Shown here: one piece after another, positions 1 through 5,694 of the stretch
Layout of the letters: each line of letters begins with the position of its first letter
How positions within the stretch are numbered: the stretch's first letter is position 1
Virus record (IMG/VR): IMGVR_UViG_3300045988_151390
Span: 1 to 5,694 of that record
DNA: 5,694 nt
Origin: a virus
Reading direction: 5' to 3' (one strand)
Notes under the pieces: generated by a model
Seen by the model: the letters and a program-made list of their open reading frames with translations, nothing else
Databases searched by the model: none
Told to the model about the DNA's origin: nothing
Position numbers and translations under genes: made by a program

Positions 1-1
1 A

Positions 2-25
2 TTTTTTTTTTTTTTTTTCTTTTTT
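2..25. repeat. Homopolymeric T17-C-T6 tract (poly-A on the minus strand) in the intergenic region between the two divergent promoters
   Basis: Counted directly from the sequence; the same tract recurs at 5577-5600. Confidence 0.9.
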
Positions 26-82
26 GCCGGCAGGCGCCACGTTTAGTCACGCGATAGCGTCTCCACCGCGTCCCCCGTCCCC

Positions 83-101
83 GCAAGGGCAAAGCCCTTG
101 C
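83..101. other. Perfect 8-bp GC-rich hairpin gcaagggc-aaa-gcccttgc in the GC-rich intergenic region; candidate origin or packaging-signal structure
   Basis: The 83-90 arm is the reverse complement of the 94-101 arm, with a 3-nt loop. The hairpin sits in a GC-rich non-coding stretch (roughly 30-190) that holds several smaller GC palindromes: acgc-gata-gcgt, gccg-tga-cggc, cggc-ggga-gccg. Confidence 0.4.
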
Positions 102-162
102 CCTTTCTAAACAGGCTGGTAGGGGCTTCCGATACGTAGTTACTGCCGTGACGGCGGGAGCC

Positions 163-197
163 GGTGGGCGTGCGTGTAATACGCCCACCTTTTTTTA
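163..197 (+). terminator. Perfect 9-bp stem (ggtgggcgt / acgcccacc, 9-nt loop) followed by T7; terminator-like or minus-strand-origin hairpin just upstream of the rep promoter
   Basis: Inverted repeat at 163-171 / 181-189 followed by tttttttactttttttt. It could insulate rep from read-through around the circle, or act as an origin hairpin on the ssDNA. Confidence 0.4.
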
Positions 198-250
198 CTT
201 TTTTTTACTTTCCTCTTGACAGCTCCTTCATATTGTGGTAACATTTAGCC
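190..250 (+). promoter_or_regulatory. Sigma70-like promoter for rep. It has upstream T-tracts (T7-ACT-T8-ACT, UP-element-like), -35 TTGACA (216-221), a 17-nt spacer ending in TGG (an extended -10 TGn), and -10 TAACAT (239-244)
   Basis: Consensus -35 with an exact 17-bp spacer. The -10 matches at 4 of 6 positions and carries an extended -10 TG. It sits about 35 nt upstream of the rep RBS. Confidence 0.5.
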
Positions 251-276
251 ATGGAAATGAAAGGTGGTTTCCTCAT

Positions 277-1413
277 ATGAAAACGGTTGTTAAACTTGAT
301 TATGCCACGTTTGCTTTTGAGCAAGGTTCGATTTCTATTTCTATAATCGAAGATGCGCTTGCTCAGTGCGATTTACATTTTTCGCAGACTTCCAACGCAA
401 GTGAGAATTCCCCATACAATTCGCCTGCGGGTCTTTTCTTTAAGCCGAATAACGGCGCGAAACAGTCTCCGCACTCTTTGCAAGTGTCCGGTCATGGTTG
501 TGAGCTTTTCCGTCCCACATTGCCGCGGCTCGCGTCACTGATGCAGGATGGTCATGAATTCGGTCACTTTTCCCGTCTTGACTTTTGCTTTGATGTTGTT
601 ATGACAAAGCAACGGTGGCGCGAGTTCTATCTGGGTGTTATTTCTGCTTCTGTTGATGAAATGAATTACCCTGAAAAAGCCCGTAAGGTTCGCAAGGTCA
701 TGTATCAGGGCTATGGCGATTCTACTACCGTCTATATCGGTCGTAGAACGTCTTCCGCGGTCTTCTGCCGCATCTATAATAAATCCCTTCAAGACCCCGA
801 AAAAAAGCTTTGTGTGGCTTCTGGTGAGTTTCTGGACTGCCCTGATGATTCCTATATCATTCGTTATGAGATGGAATTGAAATTTACTTCTCGTGTTCGT
901 TCTGGTTCTCGTTCCGTTTATGACCCGTCTCCGCTTTTCTGGTTTTACTATGAAGACCCTGAGAAGCTTTTCGCCTATCTTCGTAAAGTTTGGAATCGTT
1001 ACGGAAATGATACTCTTCTTCCCGATGGCTGGGACGATATGCAGTTCGTGACCGATATTGTAGCCCGTGGCATTCATTACACTGATGACTTTTGGCATCC
1101 CCTTAGCGATGACCTTGCTCAAAAGTTCTCCGTTTCTATCCATACCGAAGAACAAAAAATGTCTTACGTTGCTAACGTCTTCGGTCATAGGATTATTGAT
1201 ATTCTTCTTTATCGTCCTGAGTTGCTTTTCCTCGCTTGTTGTAAGTGGGAGCAGTATTATAATGAGCGTCTTTCGTTCTCCCCTCTGGAGCTTACACAGG
1301 AACTTGCGCAGTTCTCGGAATCCTCCCGCATTGCCGTTGAGGAATTTGAAGAACTTGCTGATGACCCATCTCCCTTTAGTGAAGTCGGGTTTGATGATAT
1401 ATCTTTATTCTGA
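277..1413 (+). CDS. Rolling-circle replication initiation protein of filamentous phage (gII / RstA analogue, Rep_trans-like)
   Basis: Longest ORF in its region. The ORF track begins at GTG 235, but ATG 277 (MKTVVKLDY...) is preceded by AAAGGTGG (260-267) at a 9-nt spacing. Motifs: N-terminal VKLDYATFAFE, HEFGHFSRLDFCFDV, VYIGRRTSSAVFCRIYNK and IRYEMELKF. From memory these resemble the conserved RxYNK/RxYDK and E-L-K motifs of the pT181 RepC / CTXphi RstA (Rep_trans) family. It is the first gene after the intergenic region and is followed by an SSB gene, as in inoviruses. Confidence 0.8.
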   Translation: MKTVVKLDYATFAFEQGSISISIIEDALAQCDLHFSQTSNASENSPYNSPAGLFFKPNNGAKQSPHSLQVSGHGCELFRPTLPRLASLMQDGHEFGHFSRLDFCFDVVMTKQRWREFYLGVISASVDEMNYPEKARKVRKVMYQGYGDSTTVYIGRRTSSAVFCRIYNKSLQDPEKKLCVASGEFLDCPDDSYIIRYEMELKFTSRVRSGSRSVYDPSPLFWFYYEDPEKLFAYLRKVWNRYGNDTLLPDGWDDMQFVTDIVARGIHYTDDFWHPLSDDLAQKFSVSIHTEEQKMSYVANVFGHRIIDILLYRPELLFLACCKWEQYYNERLSFSPLELTQELAQFSESSRIAVEEFEELADDPSPFSEVGFDDISLF

Positions 1414-1431
1414 TGAAAGGATGGTCGCTGT

Positions 1432-1674
1432 ATGAAAGTTACTGTAGTTGGTAAGTCCCGCCGCGCTGGTACATCTAAGCAGGGCAAAAACTATGATTTT
1501 ACTACTCTTATGGCCGAATATTCGATGCTTGCAAACGCTGACAATGATGGCGTACAGGTTGATAGAATCAATGTTGACGCTCTCATGATGCCGTATGCGC
1601 TCATTGTCGTTGGCGCTATGTATGACCTTGACTTTGACCGCAACGGATATCTCCTTGGAATTGAGGAAGTCTAA
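1432..1674 (+). CDS. ssDNA-binding protein, gene V-like (80 aa)
   Basis: SD GAAAGGATGG lies 7 nt upstream of ATG 1432, which comes 18 nt after the rep stop. Size and position match gV. The segment KSRRAGTSKQGKNYDF resembles the DNA-binding wing of M13 gVp (TTRSGVSRQGKPYSL, recalled from memory). Confidence 0.8.
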   Translation: MKVTVVGKSRRAGTSKQGKNYDFTTLMAEYSMLANADNDGVQVDRINVDALMMPYALIVVGAMYDLDFDRNGYLLGIEEV

Positions 1675-1710
1675 CTTCCTTTGTTCAAACCTAAATTTCA
1701 TTTCCTATGG

Positions 1711-1730
1711 GAGAGCTGTTCGCAGCTCTC
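1711..1730 (+). other. Perfect 8-bp hairpin gagagctg-ttcg-cagctctc with a UUCG tetraloop, 4 nt upstream of the tRNA 5' end
   Basis: Exact inverted repeat with no downstream U-tract, so it is not a classical terminator. It may be an RNA processing or stability element, or a DNA hairpin on the ssDNA form. Confidence 0.6.
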
Positions 1731-1734
1731 ACAT

Positions 1735-1808
1735 GGCGGGGTGGTGCAATGGTAGCACGTCACGCTCTGAACGTGAAACTGCTGGTTCGAATCCAGACCC
1801 CGCAACCA
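1735..1808 (+). tRNA. tRNA-Gln(CUG)-like gene with encoded CCA
   Basis: Hand-folded cloverleaf. Acceptor is 1735-1741 / 1798-1804 (6 of 7 pairs, G1·A72 mismatch). U8 is at 1742. D-stem is gtgc / gcac (1744-1747 / 1755-1758) with D-loop aatggta (A14, G18, G19, A21 present). Anticodon stem is tcacg / cgtga, with loop ctCTGaa (U33, anticodon CUG, A37). Variable region is 4 nt. T-stem is gctgg / ccaga (4 of 5 pairs) with the canonical T-loop TTCGAAT (G53, T54, T55, C56, A58, C61). Discriminator is A1805 and CCA is 1806-1808. Confidence 0.7.
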
Positions 1809-1826
1809 AACGGATTTGACCTCCGT
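1808..1826 (+). other. Small hairpin aacgga-tttgacc-tccgtt directly after the tRNA CCA; a possible tRNA 3' processing or terminator-like element. Its loop contains a TTGACC -35-like hexamer, but no good -10 follows
   Basis: 6-bp inverted repeat seen directly; only a weak T-run follows. Confidence 0.3.
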
Positions 1827-1855
1827 TATTCGATGCCGTGAAAGGTGGTGGCGAA

Positions 1856-3034
1856 GTGAATAAAAAGTGTCGATGCTTCTTTAAGCGCTTCGCCGCCCTT
1901 GTCGCGGCTCTCTTTATCTCTTTTTCTCTTCCTGTTTCGGCTCTGGCTGCTTCTGACCCGGTAGCTGATATGCCATCTTTGGATGATTTCTATAATCATC
2001 ATGGGTCTTGGTATGCTTGGCGTAGTTTTAAAATGTCAGGTATCCTTTATTATGAGTTGCTTTGCTCCCCTCTTTCTGTTTCTGGTAGTTCTTATTCGTT
2101 ACCTTATTCCGTTTCATATGCTACTAACGCATTTGATGTTTCTTATATTGCTACTGATTCTGGCTTAACATATGATTATGCTTGCGCTTTTCCTCTTCCT
2201 CTCCGTGGTGCTTCTGGTTATTGGTACGAACTACCTTCTTTCCCTATTGGTTTGAGCACAAATGCTGATACTTGTCTTGTTCGCGTTTTTTCTACTGTTG
2301 ACCAACCTTCTGGTACTTACGGCTTTTTAACTTCTTCTTTTAGTCGTTCTGACCGTCTTCTTTCTTTCGGCAATACTGTTGGTTCTTCTTCTGGTTCTTC
2401 TACTGATACTTTGGATTCGTTTATTTTTTCATCTCCCTTTTATTCCTATCCTTTTGCTATTCGTCAAACTACTTCTTCTTCCGCAAGTGGTTATGTTTTA
2501 CAGGGCGGTGATAAAGGCTTTTTTGTTCCTTTGTCTAACTATTCACGTGCCCGCTATATTGACCTTGGAAGCACCCGTTTTCTTCGTGGTACTAATTCTT
2601 TCGTTGCTTATCCGTCTGGATACACTATTCCTTCTTCTGATATTGGTTTTGTTTTTGTTCAACAACCTTCTTCTTCTCCTGTCTATTCTGCTTCTGCTTT
2701 TGATACGACCGGGTCTTTCGCTTTTTCTCTTCTTGTTCCTGCTTCTCGTCTACATGACGTTAAACTTGGCGATTGGATATCTGATTCCCCAGAGGATTTG
2801 CAAGATGCGATAACTAATCAATTCGGCATTGATTCCGGTACTCTTAAAGATTCTCAAGATAAATTTAATTCTTGGAATTCTTCTTCTTCCGTTGATTCTG
2901 ATGTTGCTTCTGGTGCTTCTGGTCTTCTTGGCGGGCTTTTTCAGAACTTAGGTACATTCTTCTTTTCTGTTTCTCTCCTTTGCTTTGGCGCTGTTATTCT
3001 TCGAATGCTCATTAGAAAGGCGGTTGACGGATGA
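1856..3034 (+). CDS. Secreted Ser/Gly/Thr-rich minor coat / adsorption protein, pIII-like, with a C-terminal membrane anchor
   Basis: ORF 1838-3034. The likely start is GTG 1856, preceded by AAAGGTGGTGG (1841-1851); the alternative is GTG 1838. A predicted signal peptide MNKKCRCFFKRFAALVAALFISFSLPVSALA / ASDP has an AxA cleavage site. Long Ser-rich low-complexity linkers are present. The C-terminus LLGGLFQNLGTFFFSVSLLCFGAVILRMLIRKAVDG is a TM helix plus a basic tail, the same architecture as Ff pIII. It is the largest structural ORF. Confidence 0.7.
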   Translation: MNKKCRCFFKRFAALVAALFISFSLPVSALAASDPVADMPSLDDFYNHHGSWYAWRSFKMSGILYYELLCSPLSVSGSSYSLPYSVSYATNAFDVSYIATDSGLTYDYACAFPLPLRGASGYWYELPSFPIGLSTNADTCLVRVFSTVDQPSGTYGFLTSSFSRSDRLLSFGNTVGSSSGSSTDTLDSFIFSSPFYSYPFAIRQTTSSSASGYVLQGGDKGFFVPLSNYSRARYIDLGSTRFLRGTNSFVAYPSGYTIPSSDIGFVFVQQPSSSPVYSASAFDTTGSFAFSLLVPASRLHDVKLGDWISDSPEDLQDAITNQFGIDSGTLKDSQDKFNSWNSSSSVDSDVASGASGLLGGLFQNLGTFFFSVSLLCFGAVILRMLIRKAVDG

Positions 3035-3162
3035 CTTTTCTTGACTTCTTCATATCAGTTTTTAACTTTTTCGGTTCTGGTGGCGCTCTCGTCATTGCCG
3101 TTGTCGTTTTCCTTGTTGGTCTCGGTATTTATAAGTTTGTAAAGGATTGGTTACCATGGTAG
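3031..3162 (+). CDS. Small hydrophobic virion/membrane protein, 43 aa (coat or minor-coat candidate)
   Basis: ATG 3031 overlaps the upstream stop (ATGA), and AAAGG (3016-3020) lies upstream. The protein is MTFLDFFISVFNFFGSGGALVIAVVVFLVGLGIYKFVKDWLPW: an acidic N-terminus, one TM helix and a basic C-terminus, like class-II (signal-less) inovirus coat proteins such as Pf3. It falls below the ORF-track size cutoff. Confidence 0.55.
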   Translation: MTFLDFFISVFNFFGSGGALVIAVVVFLVGLGIYKFVKDWLPW

Positions 3163-3323
3163 ACTTTGTTTCGACTCTCGGTGTTGTAACATCGTTTATT
3201 GCGAATGTCCTTAACCTCCCTTTTTTCGGTTTTGGTACCTTCGGCACAGTTGTTCTTATTTTTCTACTGCTTTCGCTTGTTGGCTTTGTTCTCCGTGGCC
3301 TTTGGGATGGGGGTGATAAATAA
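3156..3323 (+). CDS. Small hydrophobic membrane protein, 55 aa (minor coat, pVI/pVII/pIX-like candidate)
   Basis: ATG 3156 overlaps the previous stop (ATGGTAG). SD AAAGGA (3141-3146) is at a 9-nt spacing. The protein is MVDFVSTLGVVTSFIANVLNLPFFGFGTFGTVVLIFLLLSLVGFVLRGLWDGGDK, with two hydrophobic segments. Its stop overlaps the next start (TAATG). Confidence 0.55.
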   Translation: MVDFVSTLGVVTSFIANVLNLPFFGFGTFGTVVLIFLLLSLVGFVLRGLWDGGDK

Positions 3324-3934
3324 TGGAGGTCCCTACTATCATTAAAACTTGGGTTGATTCTGACGGTGTGACTGTCTATACCGTCCAGTATAAAGATGGT
3401 AGTACTTGTGACATGACTGTCGAGCAGTATGATTATCTCAGAGCTTCGGCTCAGGCTGTCGTTGATTTGGACGCTAAATCGTCTGCTGAATCTCAGCCGG
3501 AAGCTTCTCCTGTTCCCGCTGAGCCTTCGCAGAACATTACCGAAAGTCCCGACCTCCGCGAAGGTTATGTGCCGCAGGAAGAAGAATTACCTTTCGAAGG
3601 GAGCTTGACCGCTTATGATGACCGCGCCGCAGATTCTCCGGCTCTGTATGCTAATCTCCCAAACGTCTCTAATAGTTTCACTTCTATTATGGATTGGTTC
3701 GGAGACACGTTTTTTATCGAACGTACTGAGACGGTGCACAAGTCCGGCTATACGTCTGAAAGGTACTCCTATAACTCTTCGACTCAACTTATTCAGCTCC
3801 CTTATGCGGAAGATTCCACTACTACTTCACAAGTTCTCAACCCGCAAGCTTGTGTTTCTGCTTTGCTTGTTGTCCTTGTCTTCGTTACTACTGTTACATG
3901 GATTAAAAACGCGATTTGGGGGCGCATGAGTTGA
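3323..3934 (+). CDS. Acidic Pro/Ser/Glu-rich protein with a C-terminal TM anchor (203 aa); putative minor coat, receptor-interaction or assembly protein
   Basis: ATG 3323 has SD GGTGA 6 nt upstream. The 203-aa ORF ends ...ACVSALLVVLVFVTTVTWIKNAIWGRMS (TM helix plus basic tail). The N-terminal 150 aa are acidic and low-complexity. Codon usage is visibly GC-richer than in neighbouring genes. No family was recognised. Confidence 0.65.
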   Translation: MEVPTIIKTWVDSDGVTVYTVQYKDGSTCDMTVEQYDYLRASAQAVVDLDAKSSAESQPEASPVPAEPSQNITESPDLREGYVPQEEELPFEGSLTAYDDRAADSPALYANLPNVSNSFTSIMDWFGDTFFIERTETVHKSGYTSERYSYNSSTQLIQLPYAEDSTTTSQVLNPQACVSALLVVLVFVTTVTWIKNAIWGRMS

Positions 3935-4047
3935 TGGTATTTCTACCTTTGCAGTATTGTTTCGGCATTTTTACTGTCCCCGAGATTGGTTATTTCATTA
4001 TTTTCGCTGCTGTATTATCTATGTTGGTTCTCCTGTTGCGTCCGTGA
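3934..4047 (+). CDS. Small hydrophobic protein, 37 aa (minor coat candidate)
   Basis: ATG 3934 overlaps the upstream stop (TGATG). The protein is MVFLPLQYCFGIFTVPEIGYFIIFAAVLSMLVLLLRP. The nearest SD-like run is weak (GGGGG, 12 nt upstream), so translation probably depends on coupling. Confidence 0.4.
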   Translation: MVFLPLQYCFGIFTVPEIGYFIIFAAVLSMLVLLLRP

Positions 4048-4146
4048 CAGGTTCCAAAATATTTTTTGAAAGGATGATGCTTTCAGACTCCTACCACTTC
4101 TATCATTGGTACGTTGCTTTCTCAGGTCGGCGAATTTTTCACTCAG

Positions 4147-4275
4147 ATGATTACTTGGATGGGTCAGCTGATTGACTTTTATGAGCAGCAGCCGATTCTC
4201 CTTGTCTTCGTTATTCTGATGATTGCAAGCATCGTGCTCCGTCTTCTCCGCCGTTGGATTCCTGGCCGCTCCTAA
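4147..4275 (+). CDS. Small coat-like protein, 42 aa; major coat protein (pVIII-like) candidate
   Basis: The protein is MITWMGQLIDFYEQQPILLVFVILMIASIVLRLLRRWIPGRS: an acidic N-terminus, a single TM helix and an Arg-rich C-terminus (DNA-contact-like), the classic pVIII layout. A strong intrinsic terminator follows immediately, as after gVIII in Ff phages. No clear SD is present. The reading frame is open from 4078, so the true start could be the upstream TTG at 4114. The region overlaps the doubtful TTG-start ORF 3957-4175. Confidence 0.45.
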   Translation: MITWMGQLIDFYEQQPILLVFVILMIASIVLRLLRRWIPGRS

Positions 4276-4281
4276 AAGTGA

Positions 4282-4330
4282 GAGAAAACGCCGCCGACCA
4301 TTTTAATGGTCGGCGACGTTTTCTCGTTTT
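4282..4330 (+). terminator. Long intrinsic terminator: 20-bp stem (one C·A mismatch, loop ttta) whose GC-rich upper stem is followed by UUUUCUCGUUUU; it abuts the ATPase start codon
   Basis: Each pair of 4282-4301 versus 4306-4325 was checked by hand. The T-rich tract 4319-4330 follows the stem. The hairpin is symmetric enough to work on either strand. Confidence 0.65.
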
Positions 4331-4972
4331 ATGAAAGGATTATATGCTATGCTTTATGGTATTCTCATCTTTTGTATTTGCTGGCTTTTTGTATATATCG
4401 ATAATTATTGCAAAAACTCCTACAAATTGGAAGCTGTTGTTGGTTCAAAAGGTTCTGGCAAGTCTCTGTATATGTCTCGTGTTGCTGATAAGTGGCTTCG
4501 TTCTAATAAGGGGCTTATCTATTCTAATATGGGTATTGGTTATGAGTTAGATCCGGAATACTGGAAACAGACTTTTCTCCCTGATTCCCTTATTCTTATC
4601 GATGAAATTGGTGTTTTGCACTCTAACCGTGACTTTAAGACTATGCCCCGCGAAGCTGTCGAGTTTTTCAAGATGCAACGCAAGTATCATTTGACAATTA
4701 TTGTATCGTCTCAGACTATGGACTTTGACAAAAAGATTCGTGACCTCTGCGACCGCATTTATCTTTGCAACCGTATCGGCTGGTTTTGCCGTCTCACTCC
4801 CTATCGCTCTTGCATCGCTATGGAACATCGCCCCGAGGGAGGGCAAGAACTTGTCAATACGGTGCGCAAGGCGGGACGGGCAAGATGGTATACTATCCCT
4901 AAGTCTGTGAAGCAGGTGAGCGCCTTAGAATACGATACGGAGCAGGTTATTAGCAAGACCTCCTCTAAATAA
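4331..4972 (+). CDS. Zot / pI-like phage assembly ATPase (P-loop NTPase), short form of 213 aa with an N-terminal TM helix
   Basis: Walker A is VVGSKGSGKS, and Walker B is the hhhhDE-type motif LILIDEIG. Both are typical of the Zot N-terminal domain of inovirus pI. An N-terminal hydrophobic segment (LYGILIFCICWLFVYI) precedes the P-loop. The alternative start ATG 4349 has SD AAAGGA (4334-4339) at a 9-nt spacing. Confidence 0.85.
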   Translation: MKGLYAMLYGILIFCICWLFVYIDNYCKNSYKLEAVVGSKGSGKSLYMSRVADKWLRSNKGLIYSNMGIGYELDPEYWKQTFLPDSLILIDEIGVLHSNRDFKTMPREAVEFFKMQRKYHLTIIVSSQTMDFDKKIRDLCDRIYLCNRIGWFCRLTPYRSCIAMEHRPEGGQELVNTVRKAGRARWYTIPKSVKQVSALEYDTEQVISKTSSK

Positions 4973-4978
4973 AAACTT

Positions 4979-5015
4979 CCCCCCGTGCCCTTTAGGGTCA
5001 GGGGGGTTGTTTTTA
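4979..5015. terminator. Bidirectional intrinsic terminator between the convergent ATPase (+) and 72-aa (-) genes
   Basis: The hairpin is cccccc-gtgccc-ttta-gggtca-gggggg: 6 GC pairs, an internal loop, and a ccc/ggg stem around the ttta loop. TTGTTTTTATT follows on the plus strand, and an A-run upstream gives a U-tract on the minus strand. Confidence 0.65.
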
Positions 5016-5022
5016 TTATTCT

Positions 5023-5241
5023 TTAGCTATTTTTAAAGTAATGGTAAAGAAACTCTTCGTTATCTTTTAGAAGTCGTGCTTGGATTCTGAATCGGTGCAT
5101 ACTGCTTAGTTTCTTATCGTTAATCCATTTTTGTGCTGCGATTCTTAGAGCTTCTTTTTTGTTTTTTGCTTCGATATGGATAATCCATTCTTTATCTTCC
5201 CTTTTCTCCGTGCAAAATCTAATCTCATAATACTTATTCAT
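5023..5241 (-). CDS. Hypothetical basic 72-aa protein, second gene of the AT-rich minus-strand cassette
   Basis: Minus-strand ORF with SD AAAGGAGAA 9 nt upstream of the ATG, 17 nt downstream of the gene-1 stop. The protein is MNKYYEIRFCTEKREDKEWIIHIEAKNKKEALRIAAQKWINDKKLSSMHRFRIQARLLKDNEEFLYHYFKNS, net charge about +6. It has a faint resemblance to small HicB/UPF0150-like alpha/beta proteins, recalled from memory and not reliable. The K/E/N/I-rich composition differs from the phage core. Confidence 0.65.
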   Translation of the reverse strand: MNKYYEIRFCTEKREDKEWIIHIEAKNKKEALRIAAQKWINDKKLSSMHRFRIQARLLKDNEEFLYHYFKNS

Positions 5242-5258
5242 TTTTTTTTGTTCTCCTT

Positions 5259-5495
5259 TTAAAATCTTGTGAATGTTTTTCCGTCTTTTGTCTGTGCGAT
5301 TATCTCCCAGAAAATTTCATCGAGGTATTTTGTTGTATCCACGTAGTTGATGTCAATTCGCTTGATTATGAAGAAGTCGTAGAATTCTTCATTTTCATTG
5401 ACTGCGGTATATTTGAATGCTCTGTATTGATAGCTTTTCGTGTAGACAATTCTTTCTGTAAAGACCTTTTCAAGGAATTCTTTTTTTACTTTCAT
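5259..5495 (-). CDS. Hypothetical 78-aa protein, first gene of the AT-rich minus-strand cassette
   Basis: Minus-strand ORF with SD AAGGAGAT 8 nt upstream of the ATG (revcomp of 5501-5510). It lies about 20 nt downstream of the predicted TSS of the TTGACA/TACAAT promoter. The protein is MKVKKEFLEKVFTERIVYTKSYQYRAFKYTAVNENEEFYDFFIIKRIDINYVDTTKYLDEIFWEIIAQTKDGKTFTRF. No family was recognised. Confidence 0.65.
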   Translation of the reverse strand: MKVKKEFLEKVFTERIVYTKSYQYRAFKYTAVNENEEFYDFFIIKRIDINYVDTTKYLDEIFWEIIAQTKDGKTFTRF

Positions 5496-5524
5496 GCGCT
5501 TATCTCCTTTCCTTTTATGTCTTT

Positions 5525-5553
5525 ATTGTAGCATAGAAATTTCTATTTGTCAA
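5525..5553 (-). promoter_or_regulatory. Near-consensus sigma70 promoter on the minus strand driving the 78-aa/72-aa operon: -35 TTGACA (revcomp of 5548-5553), exact 17-nt spacer, -10 TACAAT (revcomp of 5525-5530)
   Basis: The reverse complement of 5521-5560 reads TTGACAaatagaaatttctatgcTACAATaaag. The predicted TSS is near 5518, giving a 5'UTR of about 23 nt that contains the AAGGAGAT SD. Confidence 0.6.
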
Positions 5554-5568
5554 TAGGAATTTCTATTG
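5533..5568. promoter_or_regulatory. Two tandem palindromic operator-like sites, 20 bp apart centre to centre. Site 1 ATAGAAATTTCTAT (5533-5546) is a perfect 14-bp palindrome inside the promoter spacer. Site 2 cAATAGGAATTTCTATTg (5551-5568) is an 18-bp palindrome with one mismatched pair, overlapping the -35
   Basis: Both palindromes were checked base by base. They share the half-site ATAG(A/G)AA / TTTCTAT. Their position over the -35 and spacer is typical of an autoregulating repressor operator. Confidence 0.55.
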
Positions 5569-5575
5569 CTCCATC

Positions 5576-5694
5576 ATTTTTTTTTTTTTTTTTCTTTTTT
5601 GCCGGCAGGCGCCACGTTTAGTCACGCGATAGCGTCTCCACCGCGTCCCCCGTCCCCGCAAGGGCAAAGCCCTTGCCCTTTCTAAACAGGCTGG
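5576..5694. repeat. Terminal redundancy copy 2, identical to 1-119 (circular wrap-around)
   Basis: Exact match to the first 119 nt of the window. Confidence 0.9.

Follow-up and report, generated by a model that had tools for sequence, protein, structure and literature searches.

Paired ATAG-N6-CTAT sites, predicted to be operators, overlap the promoter of an antisense accessory cassette in a small filamentous phage

The viral DNA analysed here (IMG/VR record IMGVR_UViG_3300045988_151390, positions 1 to 5,694; 5,694 nucleotides, hereafter the window) carries near its right end, on the minus strand, a promoter that is overlapped by two near-identical palindromes and that precedes a cassette of two small antisense genes. 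Positions 1-119 of the window are repeated exactly at 5576-5694, and this 119-nt terminal redundancy identifies the window as a circular genome of 5575 nt that was read slightly past its start. The genome is that of a small filamentous gut phage, an inovirus, and its nearest GenBank records are porcine 'Inovirus sp.' genomes with 84-86% identity across 26-37% of the window. The first cassette gene, the open reading frame (ORF) named ORF78 (5259..5495, minus strand), encodes a small alpha+beta protein and is conserved. The second, ORF72 (5023..5241, minus strand), is a rare occupant of a variable slot. With their promoter, the two palindromic sites and a T-run, these genes occupy a stretch of ~596 bp (5019..5614) that is low in guanine plus cytosine (fraction 0.29-0.34 against ~0.44 in the remaining genome). 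The relative MT135305 aligns to the window up to position 5018 and resumes at 5615 (equivalent to position 40) with nothing between, which marks 5019-5614 as a discrete insertion containing both antisense genes, the promoter and the T-run. In MT135305 the terminator of the pI gene abuts the intergenic region directly, without an antisense cassette. From these sequence comparisons the cassette appears to be horizontally acquired, antisense, accessory and, being missing from MT135305, dispensable. An earlier note made from the letters of this sequence had spoken of a cassette switch; no sign of a switch was seen, and the cassette has the form of a plain insertion.

The cassette promoter is predicted to be of the extended -10 sigma-70/sigmaA type, with the hexamers, the spacing and the TG of that class, and these elements are conserved in relatives. 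Its -35 element TTGACA (5548..5553, read from 5553 to 5548 on the minus strand) is separated by a 17-nt spacer from TACAAT (5530..5525), and a TG at 5533..5532 completes the extended -10 sequence TGcTACAAT (5525..5533, minus strand). With 11 of 12 consensus matches this was the top-scoring site of the window in a promoter scan, in agreement with the near-consensus promoter described in the earlier note. The TA preceding the TG gives TATG, which we take to be the -16 'TRTG' element of Gram-positive promoters, as found in Firmicutes. The predicted proximal operator, O1 (5533..5546, ATAG-AAATTT-CTAT), fills the spacer and is a perfect palindrome, ATAGAAATTTCTAT; the window has no other perfect palindrome of 12 bp or more. 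The predicted distal operator, O2 (5553..5566, ATAG-GAATTT-CTAT on the plus strand), overlaps the first base or bases of the -35 element; its extended 18-bp form, CAATAGGAATTTCTATTG (5551-5568), pairs at eight of nine positions and overlaps three -35 bases. The centres of the two palindromes (5539.5 and 5559.5) lie 20 bp apart, and both palindromes are present as the earlier note had them. The same 10-bp phase includes a further tetranucleotide (5523..5526, minus strand) that shares two bases with the end of the -10 element; it is ATAA here, and nearly all relatives have ATAG. The Shine-Dalgarno sequence AGGAG (5504..5508, minus strand) lies 8 nt 5' of the ORF78 ATG, inside an invariant CATAAAAGGAAAGGAG leader. 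The dyad symmetry, with O1 filling the spacer and O2 overlapping the -35 element, is thus placed where a bound protein would exclude RNA polymerase.

A lone perfect 14-bp palindrome is unremarkable in this genome, being found in 498 of 2000 dinucleotide shuffles (25%). A pair of ATAG-N6-CTAT sites no more than 40 bp apart was found in none of the 2000 shuffles (mean 0.068 per genome). No third exact copy of ATAG-N6-CTAT was found elsewhere in the genome. The divergent promoter of the replication gene rep (216..244, plus strand; TTGACA at 216-221, 17-nt spacer, TGTGgTAACAT with TAACAT at 239-244) lies 238 bp from the cassette -35 element around the circle, close to the 240 bp previously estimated, and it carries no operator copy. 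The further suggestion that one protein couples the cassette to replication found no support, as no ATAG-N6-CTAT site within one mismatch was present near 216-244 and no further copy elsewhere in the genome; operators at the rep promoter, as expected of a CI-, RstR- or Pf4r-like arrangement, are therefore missing. That the pair is more than a product of chance is argued most strongly by comparative conservation.

For this comparison 34 distinct upstream regions were collected from ORF78 relatives and gave a gap-free alignment. The conserved stretch opens precisely with the distal ATAG and extends through the ribosome-binding site, and 5' of it there is just a variable A/T run. It reads ATAG-N6-CTAT / TGACAA / ATAG-N6-CTAT / GCTACA / ATAG, that is, five tetranucleotides at exact 10-bp steps. 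Nucleotide diversity (pi) was computed for the 27 inoviruses whose protein is of the 78-aa type. Against a value of 0.30 at fourfold synonymous sites, pi was 0-0.07 at the proximal A-ATAG-AA and CTAT, 0-0.07 at the distal CTAT, and 0-0.07 per site in the -35 element, while the four central bases of O1 gave 0.33, 0.53, 0.27 and 0.48. Constraint was weaker at the distal ATAG (0.26, 0.07, 0 and 0.31). The half-sites are thus conserved beyond neutral drift and the centre is free, as is expected of an operator. Across the 34 sequences the outer four base pairs are retained in 31-34 for O1 and in 27-34 over both palindromes, while the inner three pairs are often broken by one-sided, uncompensated changes, and the proximal palindrome is perfect in merely 14. 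Retention of half-sites around a free centre points to reading by a symmetric protein and not to upkeep of a hairpin. Judged from these alignments, the selected feature is the ATAG-N6-CTAT half-site pair with its free centre, and not the perfect palindrome that had first drawn attention to the locus.

The same arrangement recurs well beyond the inoviruses, on larger viral contigs of 16-180 kb. A scan of viral contigs for CTATTGACAAATAG-N6-CTAT recovered, in addition to inoviruses, unrelated contigs of 16-144 kb, a size typical of double-stranded DNA (dsDNA) phages, with the identical architecture ATAG-N6-CTAT|TGACAA|ATAG-N6-CTAT|G.TA.AAT. These larger contigs hold far more copies of the motif than expected, grouped at promoters (six sites in 2 kb against an expected 0.04 in one example), and some copies lie downstream of the -10 element. 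A generic scan for two sites 20 bp apart, with the gap left unspecified, gave 61 loci; in 34 matches a -35 element occupies the 6-bp gap and a -10 element directly follows the second CTAT. The window shows the same register. The promoters nearest to that of the inovirus (L069, L070, L142 and L143) are directly followed by an Xre-type helix-turn-helix (HTH) gene, assigned by Pfam HTH_3, HTH_26 or HTH_37. At a further locus (L144, ~1590-1640), which encodes an Xre homologue with 58% identity, both sites read ATAC-N6-GTAT in the same register; here and in L142 the sites are 18 bp apart, not 20. Within this comparison of five loci, both half-sites in both copies have changed symmetrically, which is as expected for altered specificity of a binding protein. 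Promoter matches in GenBank (Enterococcus and S. thermophilus phages, Borrelia plasmids) were discarded as generic likeness to Firmicutes promoters and ribosome-binding sites, without ATAG-N6-CTAT pairs, and a string search of the literature for the motif returned nothing relevant.

A second kind of gene accompanies the double site at 26 loci (L077, L082, L085, L087-L092, L095, L099, L101, L102, L104, L105, L107, L108, L110, L118, L119, L122-L124, L126, L128 and L132). These encode a family of 60-76-aa proteins with a strand-helix-helix pattern and the N-terminal motif (S/T)Y(S/N)xxxQKxYNxK, here called ribbon-helix-helix (RHH)-like. The gene is mostly divergent, lies 56-190 nt from the double-site promoter and has a third operator at its own promoter. 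The viral contigs that carry family members measure about 11-201 kb, and many are low-GC gut phage contigs of 100-180 kb. The family is not in Pfam, and a profile search of the PDB gave weak matches only (the small uncharacterised protein 2kke, E 0.07; Arc, E 1.4), so the fold label, taken from the pattern and these weak matches, is a tentative one. Two of the proteins used as tblastn queries against GenBank phages gave no match or one unannotated match. An adjacent Xre-type or RHH-like gene thus accompanies the double site in the contigs of dsDNA-phage size and is absent from the inoviruses: neither the window nor any of the ~45 inovirus loci retrieved has an HTH, Xre or RHH-like ORF, and in the window no gene for a cognate DNA-binding protein lies beside the sites.

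The cassette proteins themselves do not resemble known regulators. ORF78 has 257 homologues, nearly all on contigs of 5.0-5.7 kb from human and animal gut metagenomes. Its structural model is a confident alpha+beta fold without HTH or RHH, for which no match was found in the PDB or BFVD. Searches of Pfam, PHROGs, NCBIfam and PADLOC with ORF78 and ORF72 gave nothing significant, and matches of ORF78 to the long repeat proteins P0150, P0151, P0156 and P0157 were rejected as ankyrin or low-complexity artefacts. The same inovirus family also has a second ORF78 type, of 69 aa and with 36% identity, that is preceded by identical operator half-sites, and a 43%-identical type (locus L035) has the consensus promoter. 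ORF72 has just two other relatives among 5.8 billion proteins and is absent from the ~45 related loci, in which the operators are kept; in other inoviruses the slot after ORF78 holds unrelated small genes (L135 3227-3430, L136 315-470, L137 3226-3441). The predicted ORF72 fold weakly resembles eL20/PurS, T7 Gp2 and anti-CRISPR (Acr) proteins. As modelled, neither cassette protein has a DNA-binding fold, so the recognised DNA-binding domain expected in the product of an autoregulated CI-, RstR- or Pf4r-like repressor gene is lacking.

Members of the ORF78 family also occur outside the inoviruses. Homologues with the promoter core are found in Microviridae (L002, accession OP549876, 2554-2757; L011, 5001-5213; L145; L146), so the small gene cassette is common to two families of single-stranded DNA (ssDNA) phages. 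One microvirus lineage has the gene on the strand opposite to rep, and another has it in the same direction as the capsid genes. A 57-aa member lies in a 97-kb viral contig (L095, reverse complement of 10013-10186), inside an operon 2.8 kb downstream of an RHH-linked double-operator promoter and without an operator of its own. The protein P0131, used as a query against the viral contigs, gave no match.

Taken with their placement, the selection on their half-sites and their recurrence beside regulator genes in larger phages, the two ATAG-N6-CTAT sites would be operators of a recurrent phage class set on an extended -10 sigmaA-type promoter, and we put the probability that they function as operators at roughly 0.7. 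Since 20 bp is about two helical turns, a symmetric dimer, or a pair of dimers, could sit at both sites on the same face of the DNA, and the bound protein, covering the edge of the -35 element and the spacer, would exclude RNA polymerase. The promoter would drive the captured antisense cassette, ORF78 plus the variable second gene, which may form a self-contained transcription unit, equipped as it is with a promoter, a Shine-Dalgarno sequence and a two-way terminator (4968-5017). The binder is more likely to be a small Xre-type HTH or RHH-like repressor, acting in trans from a prophage or other mobile element in the same cell or from the host, than a cassette protein, in which case the output of the cassette would depend on the other inhabitants of the cell. 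This source is suggested by the absence of Xre and RHH-like genes from the inovirus together with their company with the same sites in larger phages, and we regard it as the most likely one, with odds slightly below even. We infer that a protein binds in inovirus-infected cells and that its binding represses; its supply in trans is the less assured step. Of the dimeric repressor acting on its own promoter that the earlier note had proposed, the operator-like placement and the selected half-sites are borne out, and autoregulation by a cassette protein is not.

Several observations weigh against this interpretation. The conservation of the half-sites partly overlaps promoter elements, the last T of the distal CTAT falling in the -35 element and the proximal TAT plus G forming TRTG. 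A factor acting in trans would need to be present in all hosts of a diverse inovirus family. Since the cassette moves between inoviruses and microviruses, a regulator carried along with it would be the simpler assumption. The occurrence of two unrelated families, Xre and RHH-like, beside one motif is odd and leaves room for a third binder, ORF78 included. The ORF78 family is, moreover, mildly basic (median isoelectric point 9.0), which makes nucleic-acid binding possible.

Alternatively, ORF78 would itself be an autorepressor with a new fold, neither HTH nor RHH, whose dimer binds ATAG-N6-CTAT and shuts its own promoter, much as AcrIIA1 in anti-CRISPR loci is both payload and regulator. In inoviruses and microviruses alike the promoter and ORF78 move together, no other gene of the operon is conserved, the second slot being variable, and the antisense place of ORF78 next to rep is that of repressor genes in other inoviruses; apart from the basic character of the family, the conserved polar residues T19, Y24, R46 and T69 could make a binding surface. 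A protein that sets specificity is expected to co-vary with its sites, and ORF78 does not, its 36%-identical variants sharing the same half-sites, which is unlike a binder. With a fold lacking HTH or RHH, and with the motif tied elsewhere to Xre and RHH-like regulator families, we consider autorepression by ORF78 unlikely; the rarity of ORF72 speaks against that protein as well. Somewhat less probable again is that no repressor acts and that the palindromes are inherited baggage, the bases being kept for promoter strength through the context of the -35 element, the TRTG and the A/T-rich spacer and upstream DNA. The proximal CTAT plus G does coincide with TRTG and the distal CTAT shares a T with the -35 element, and most of the 29 matches to CTATTGACAAATAG-N6-CTAT in bacterial genomes are ordinary-looking promoters from many phyla, a scan in which no ORF78 homologue was found. 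In the microvirus copies the left half-sites are eroded, the distal ATAG being missing and the proximal one reading ATAC or TTAG in two of three lineages. Promoter strength gives no explanation for the seven spacer bases A-ATAG-AA, which are invariant and lie outside known sigmaA elements, while the next four bases drift neutrally. In other phages copies of the motif also lie downstream of the -10 element and at further promoters, and its half-sites change symmetrically alongside the Xre homologue, which identifies it as a protein site and not a promoter element.

Two other roles have very little probability. One is a hairpin in ssDNA, formed by 18-bp pairing between the two palindromes, for priming of the complementary strand or as a single-strand promoter, for which the Ff minus-strand origin and the Frpo elements of plasmids are models. 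The plus strand from 5510 to 5580 does fold in this way (free energy -10.9 kcal/mol, z -6.1), the element adjoins the intergenic region, and the promoter RNA would be complementary to the packaged strand if, as gene orientation and T-richness suggest, the plus strand is packaged. The hairpin or cruciform was rejected for lack of covariation in the 34 relatives (score 0.032, shuffles 0.026; 91 of 500 shuffles reached the observed score). In such a fold the -35 element would also lie in the loop and the -10 element would be single-stranded, so that no duplex promoter is mimicked; the same architecture occurs in contigs of dsDNA-phage size, and MT135305 lacks the cassette, which cannot therefore be its essential origin. 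The other is binding by a chromosomal regulator of the host, such as a Fur-family protein of Oscillospiraceae, and it is just as improbable. Three metagenome-assembled genomes (MAGs) carry ..GAATAATTCCTATTGACAAATAG-N6-CTATG.TATACT directly upstream of a Fur-family gene of 133-145 aa (L036, 1570-1660; L042; L053). Their distal box is a 7-1-7 arrangement (TAAGAAT-A-ATTCCTA), 2 bp longer than the phage site; Fur-type boxes have a different symmetry; a single orthologous group was matched, where a dozen or more chance or generic promoter matches are expected; and a link between these MAGs and the inovirus was looked for and none was found. As an observation in its own right, the promoter of these three Oscillospiraceae/Faecousia genomes is near-identical to that of the phage, TTCCTATTGACAAATAG-N6-CTATG.TATACT, and its upstream 7-1-7 box is TAAGAATAATTCCTA.

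The predicted operators may be set beside several known systems. O_R of phage 434, ACAA-N6-TTGT, is bound by dimers of the CI/Cro HTH type, and the sites described here likewise span 14 bp, with four conserved outer bases in each half-site and six central bases that are weakly read. As in lambdoid arrays, tandem sites lie about two turns apart on a promoter, which would allow cooperative occupancy, and Xre/Cro-type genes accompany the motif in the contigs of dsDNA-phage size; unlike those arrays, the inovirus has no HTH gene, the controlled gene is an accessory one and not part of a lysis-lysogeny decision, and no divergent repressor promoter shares the sites. The immI region of phage P22 has the RHH repressors Mnt and Arc acting on P_ant, with TAGA boxes in the Arc operator. 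The core TAG(A/G) of the half-site resembles this box, and at the 26 loci the double-site promoter similarly faces a small divergent RHH-like gene with its own operator, whereas the inovirus has no such gene, and elsewhere the RHH label itself comes from a pattern and weak profile matches. In acr-aca operons Aca represses a strong promoter that bears two inverted repeats. The cassette shares with them a very strong promoter, two inverted repeats on the -35/-10 region and short, variable payloads of unknown fold, but an aca-type HTH gene was looked for in the cassette operon and not found, nothing pointed to an anti-defence activity, and PADLOC gave no match.

Among inoviruses, RstR of CTXphi and Pf4r of Pf4 are repressors transcribed opposite to the replication genes, and both are HTH proteins that act on the promoters of replication genes. 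ORF78 is similarly a small opposite-strand gene beside rep and the intergenic region, with predicted protein sites on its promoter. Pf4r binds its own promoter as a dimer (PMC8402870). Unlike RstR and Pf4r, ORF78 is not an HTH protein, the sites lie on its own promoter only and not on that of rep, and the cassette is dispensable. Each of these comparisons breaks down at one point, namely that no cognate regulator is encoded with the sites.

Overlap between operators and a promoter is textbook; the unusual feature here is clear purifying selection on such sites in a 5.6-kb genome that lacks a gene for the binder. If the sites are bound in trans, an accessory gene of a filamentous phage would be under the control of another mobile element or of the host, a case of cross-virus regulation in the gut that can be tested. 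A more specific version, which we consider possible and clearly less probable than supply in trans as such, is that a captured accessory gene of inoviruses and some microviruses is wired to the repressor of unrelated dsDNA temperate phages or mobile elements. The gene would then be silent in cells harbouring that element and would fire in naive cells or on induction of the element, amounting to regulatory eavesdropping between viruses of different realms in one host. Relative to the libraries searched, the ATAG-N6-CTAT double-operator class in its fixed -35/-10 register, the uncharacterised RHH-like regulator family, and the small alpha+beta family found in inoviruses, microviruses and one large phage are newly defined.

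The remainder of the genome is arranged on the plus strand, with a Rep_trans-type initiator (235-1413), an 80-aa ssDNA-binding-like protein, a 398-aa protein, several small membrane ORFs, a 203-aa protein and a Zot/pI-like ATPase (4331-4972). The pI/Zot-like gene is separated from the cassette end by a two-way terminator hairpin (4968..5017) with 24-nt arms that are 79% complementary, and terminator-like sites fall inside it at 4987-5007. A complete tRNA-Gln(CTG) (1735-1808, plus strand; Rfam 53.4 bits, also called by ARAGORN) stands between the ssDNA-binding-like gene and the 398-aa ORF, and it may imitate an attachment site or serve as a functional tRNA. In two porcine inoviruses similarity begins at 1733, so the tRNA seems to be conserved. 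The 119-nt repeat holds a 25-nt T-run and GC-rich hairpins, for example GCAAGGGCAAAGCCCTTGC at 83-101; relatives retain these elements, which probably act as signals for the origin or for packaging. Finally, a fragment of this inovirus was found inside a 52.9-kb bacterial contig (L010, 1382-3249). It retains part of Rep and, at 97% identity, the C-terminal part of pI, together with an ORF78 of the 69-aa type whose operators are degenerate, and it is flanked by a YchF-type GTPase gene and a gene for an SLH-domain protein, which may offer a clue to the host.

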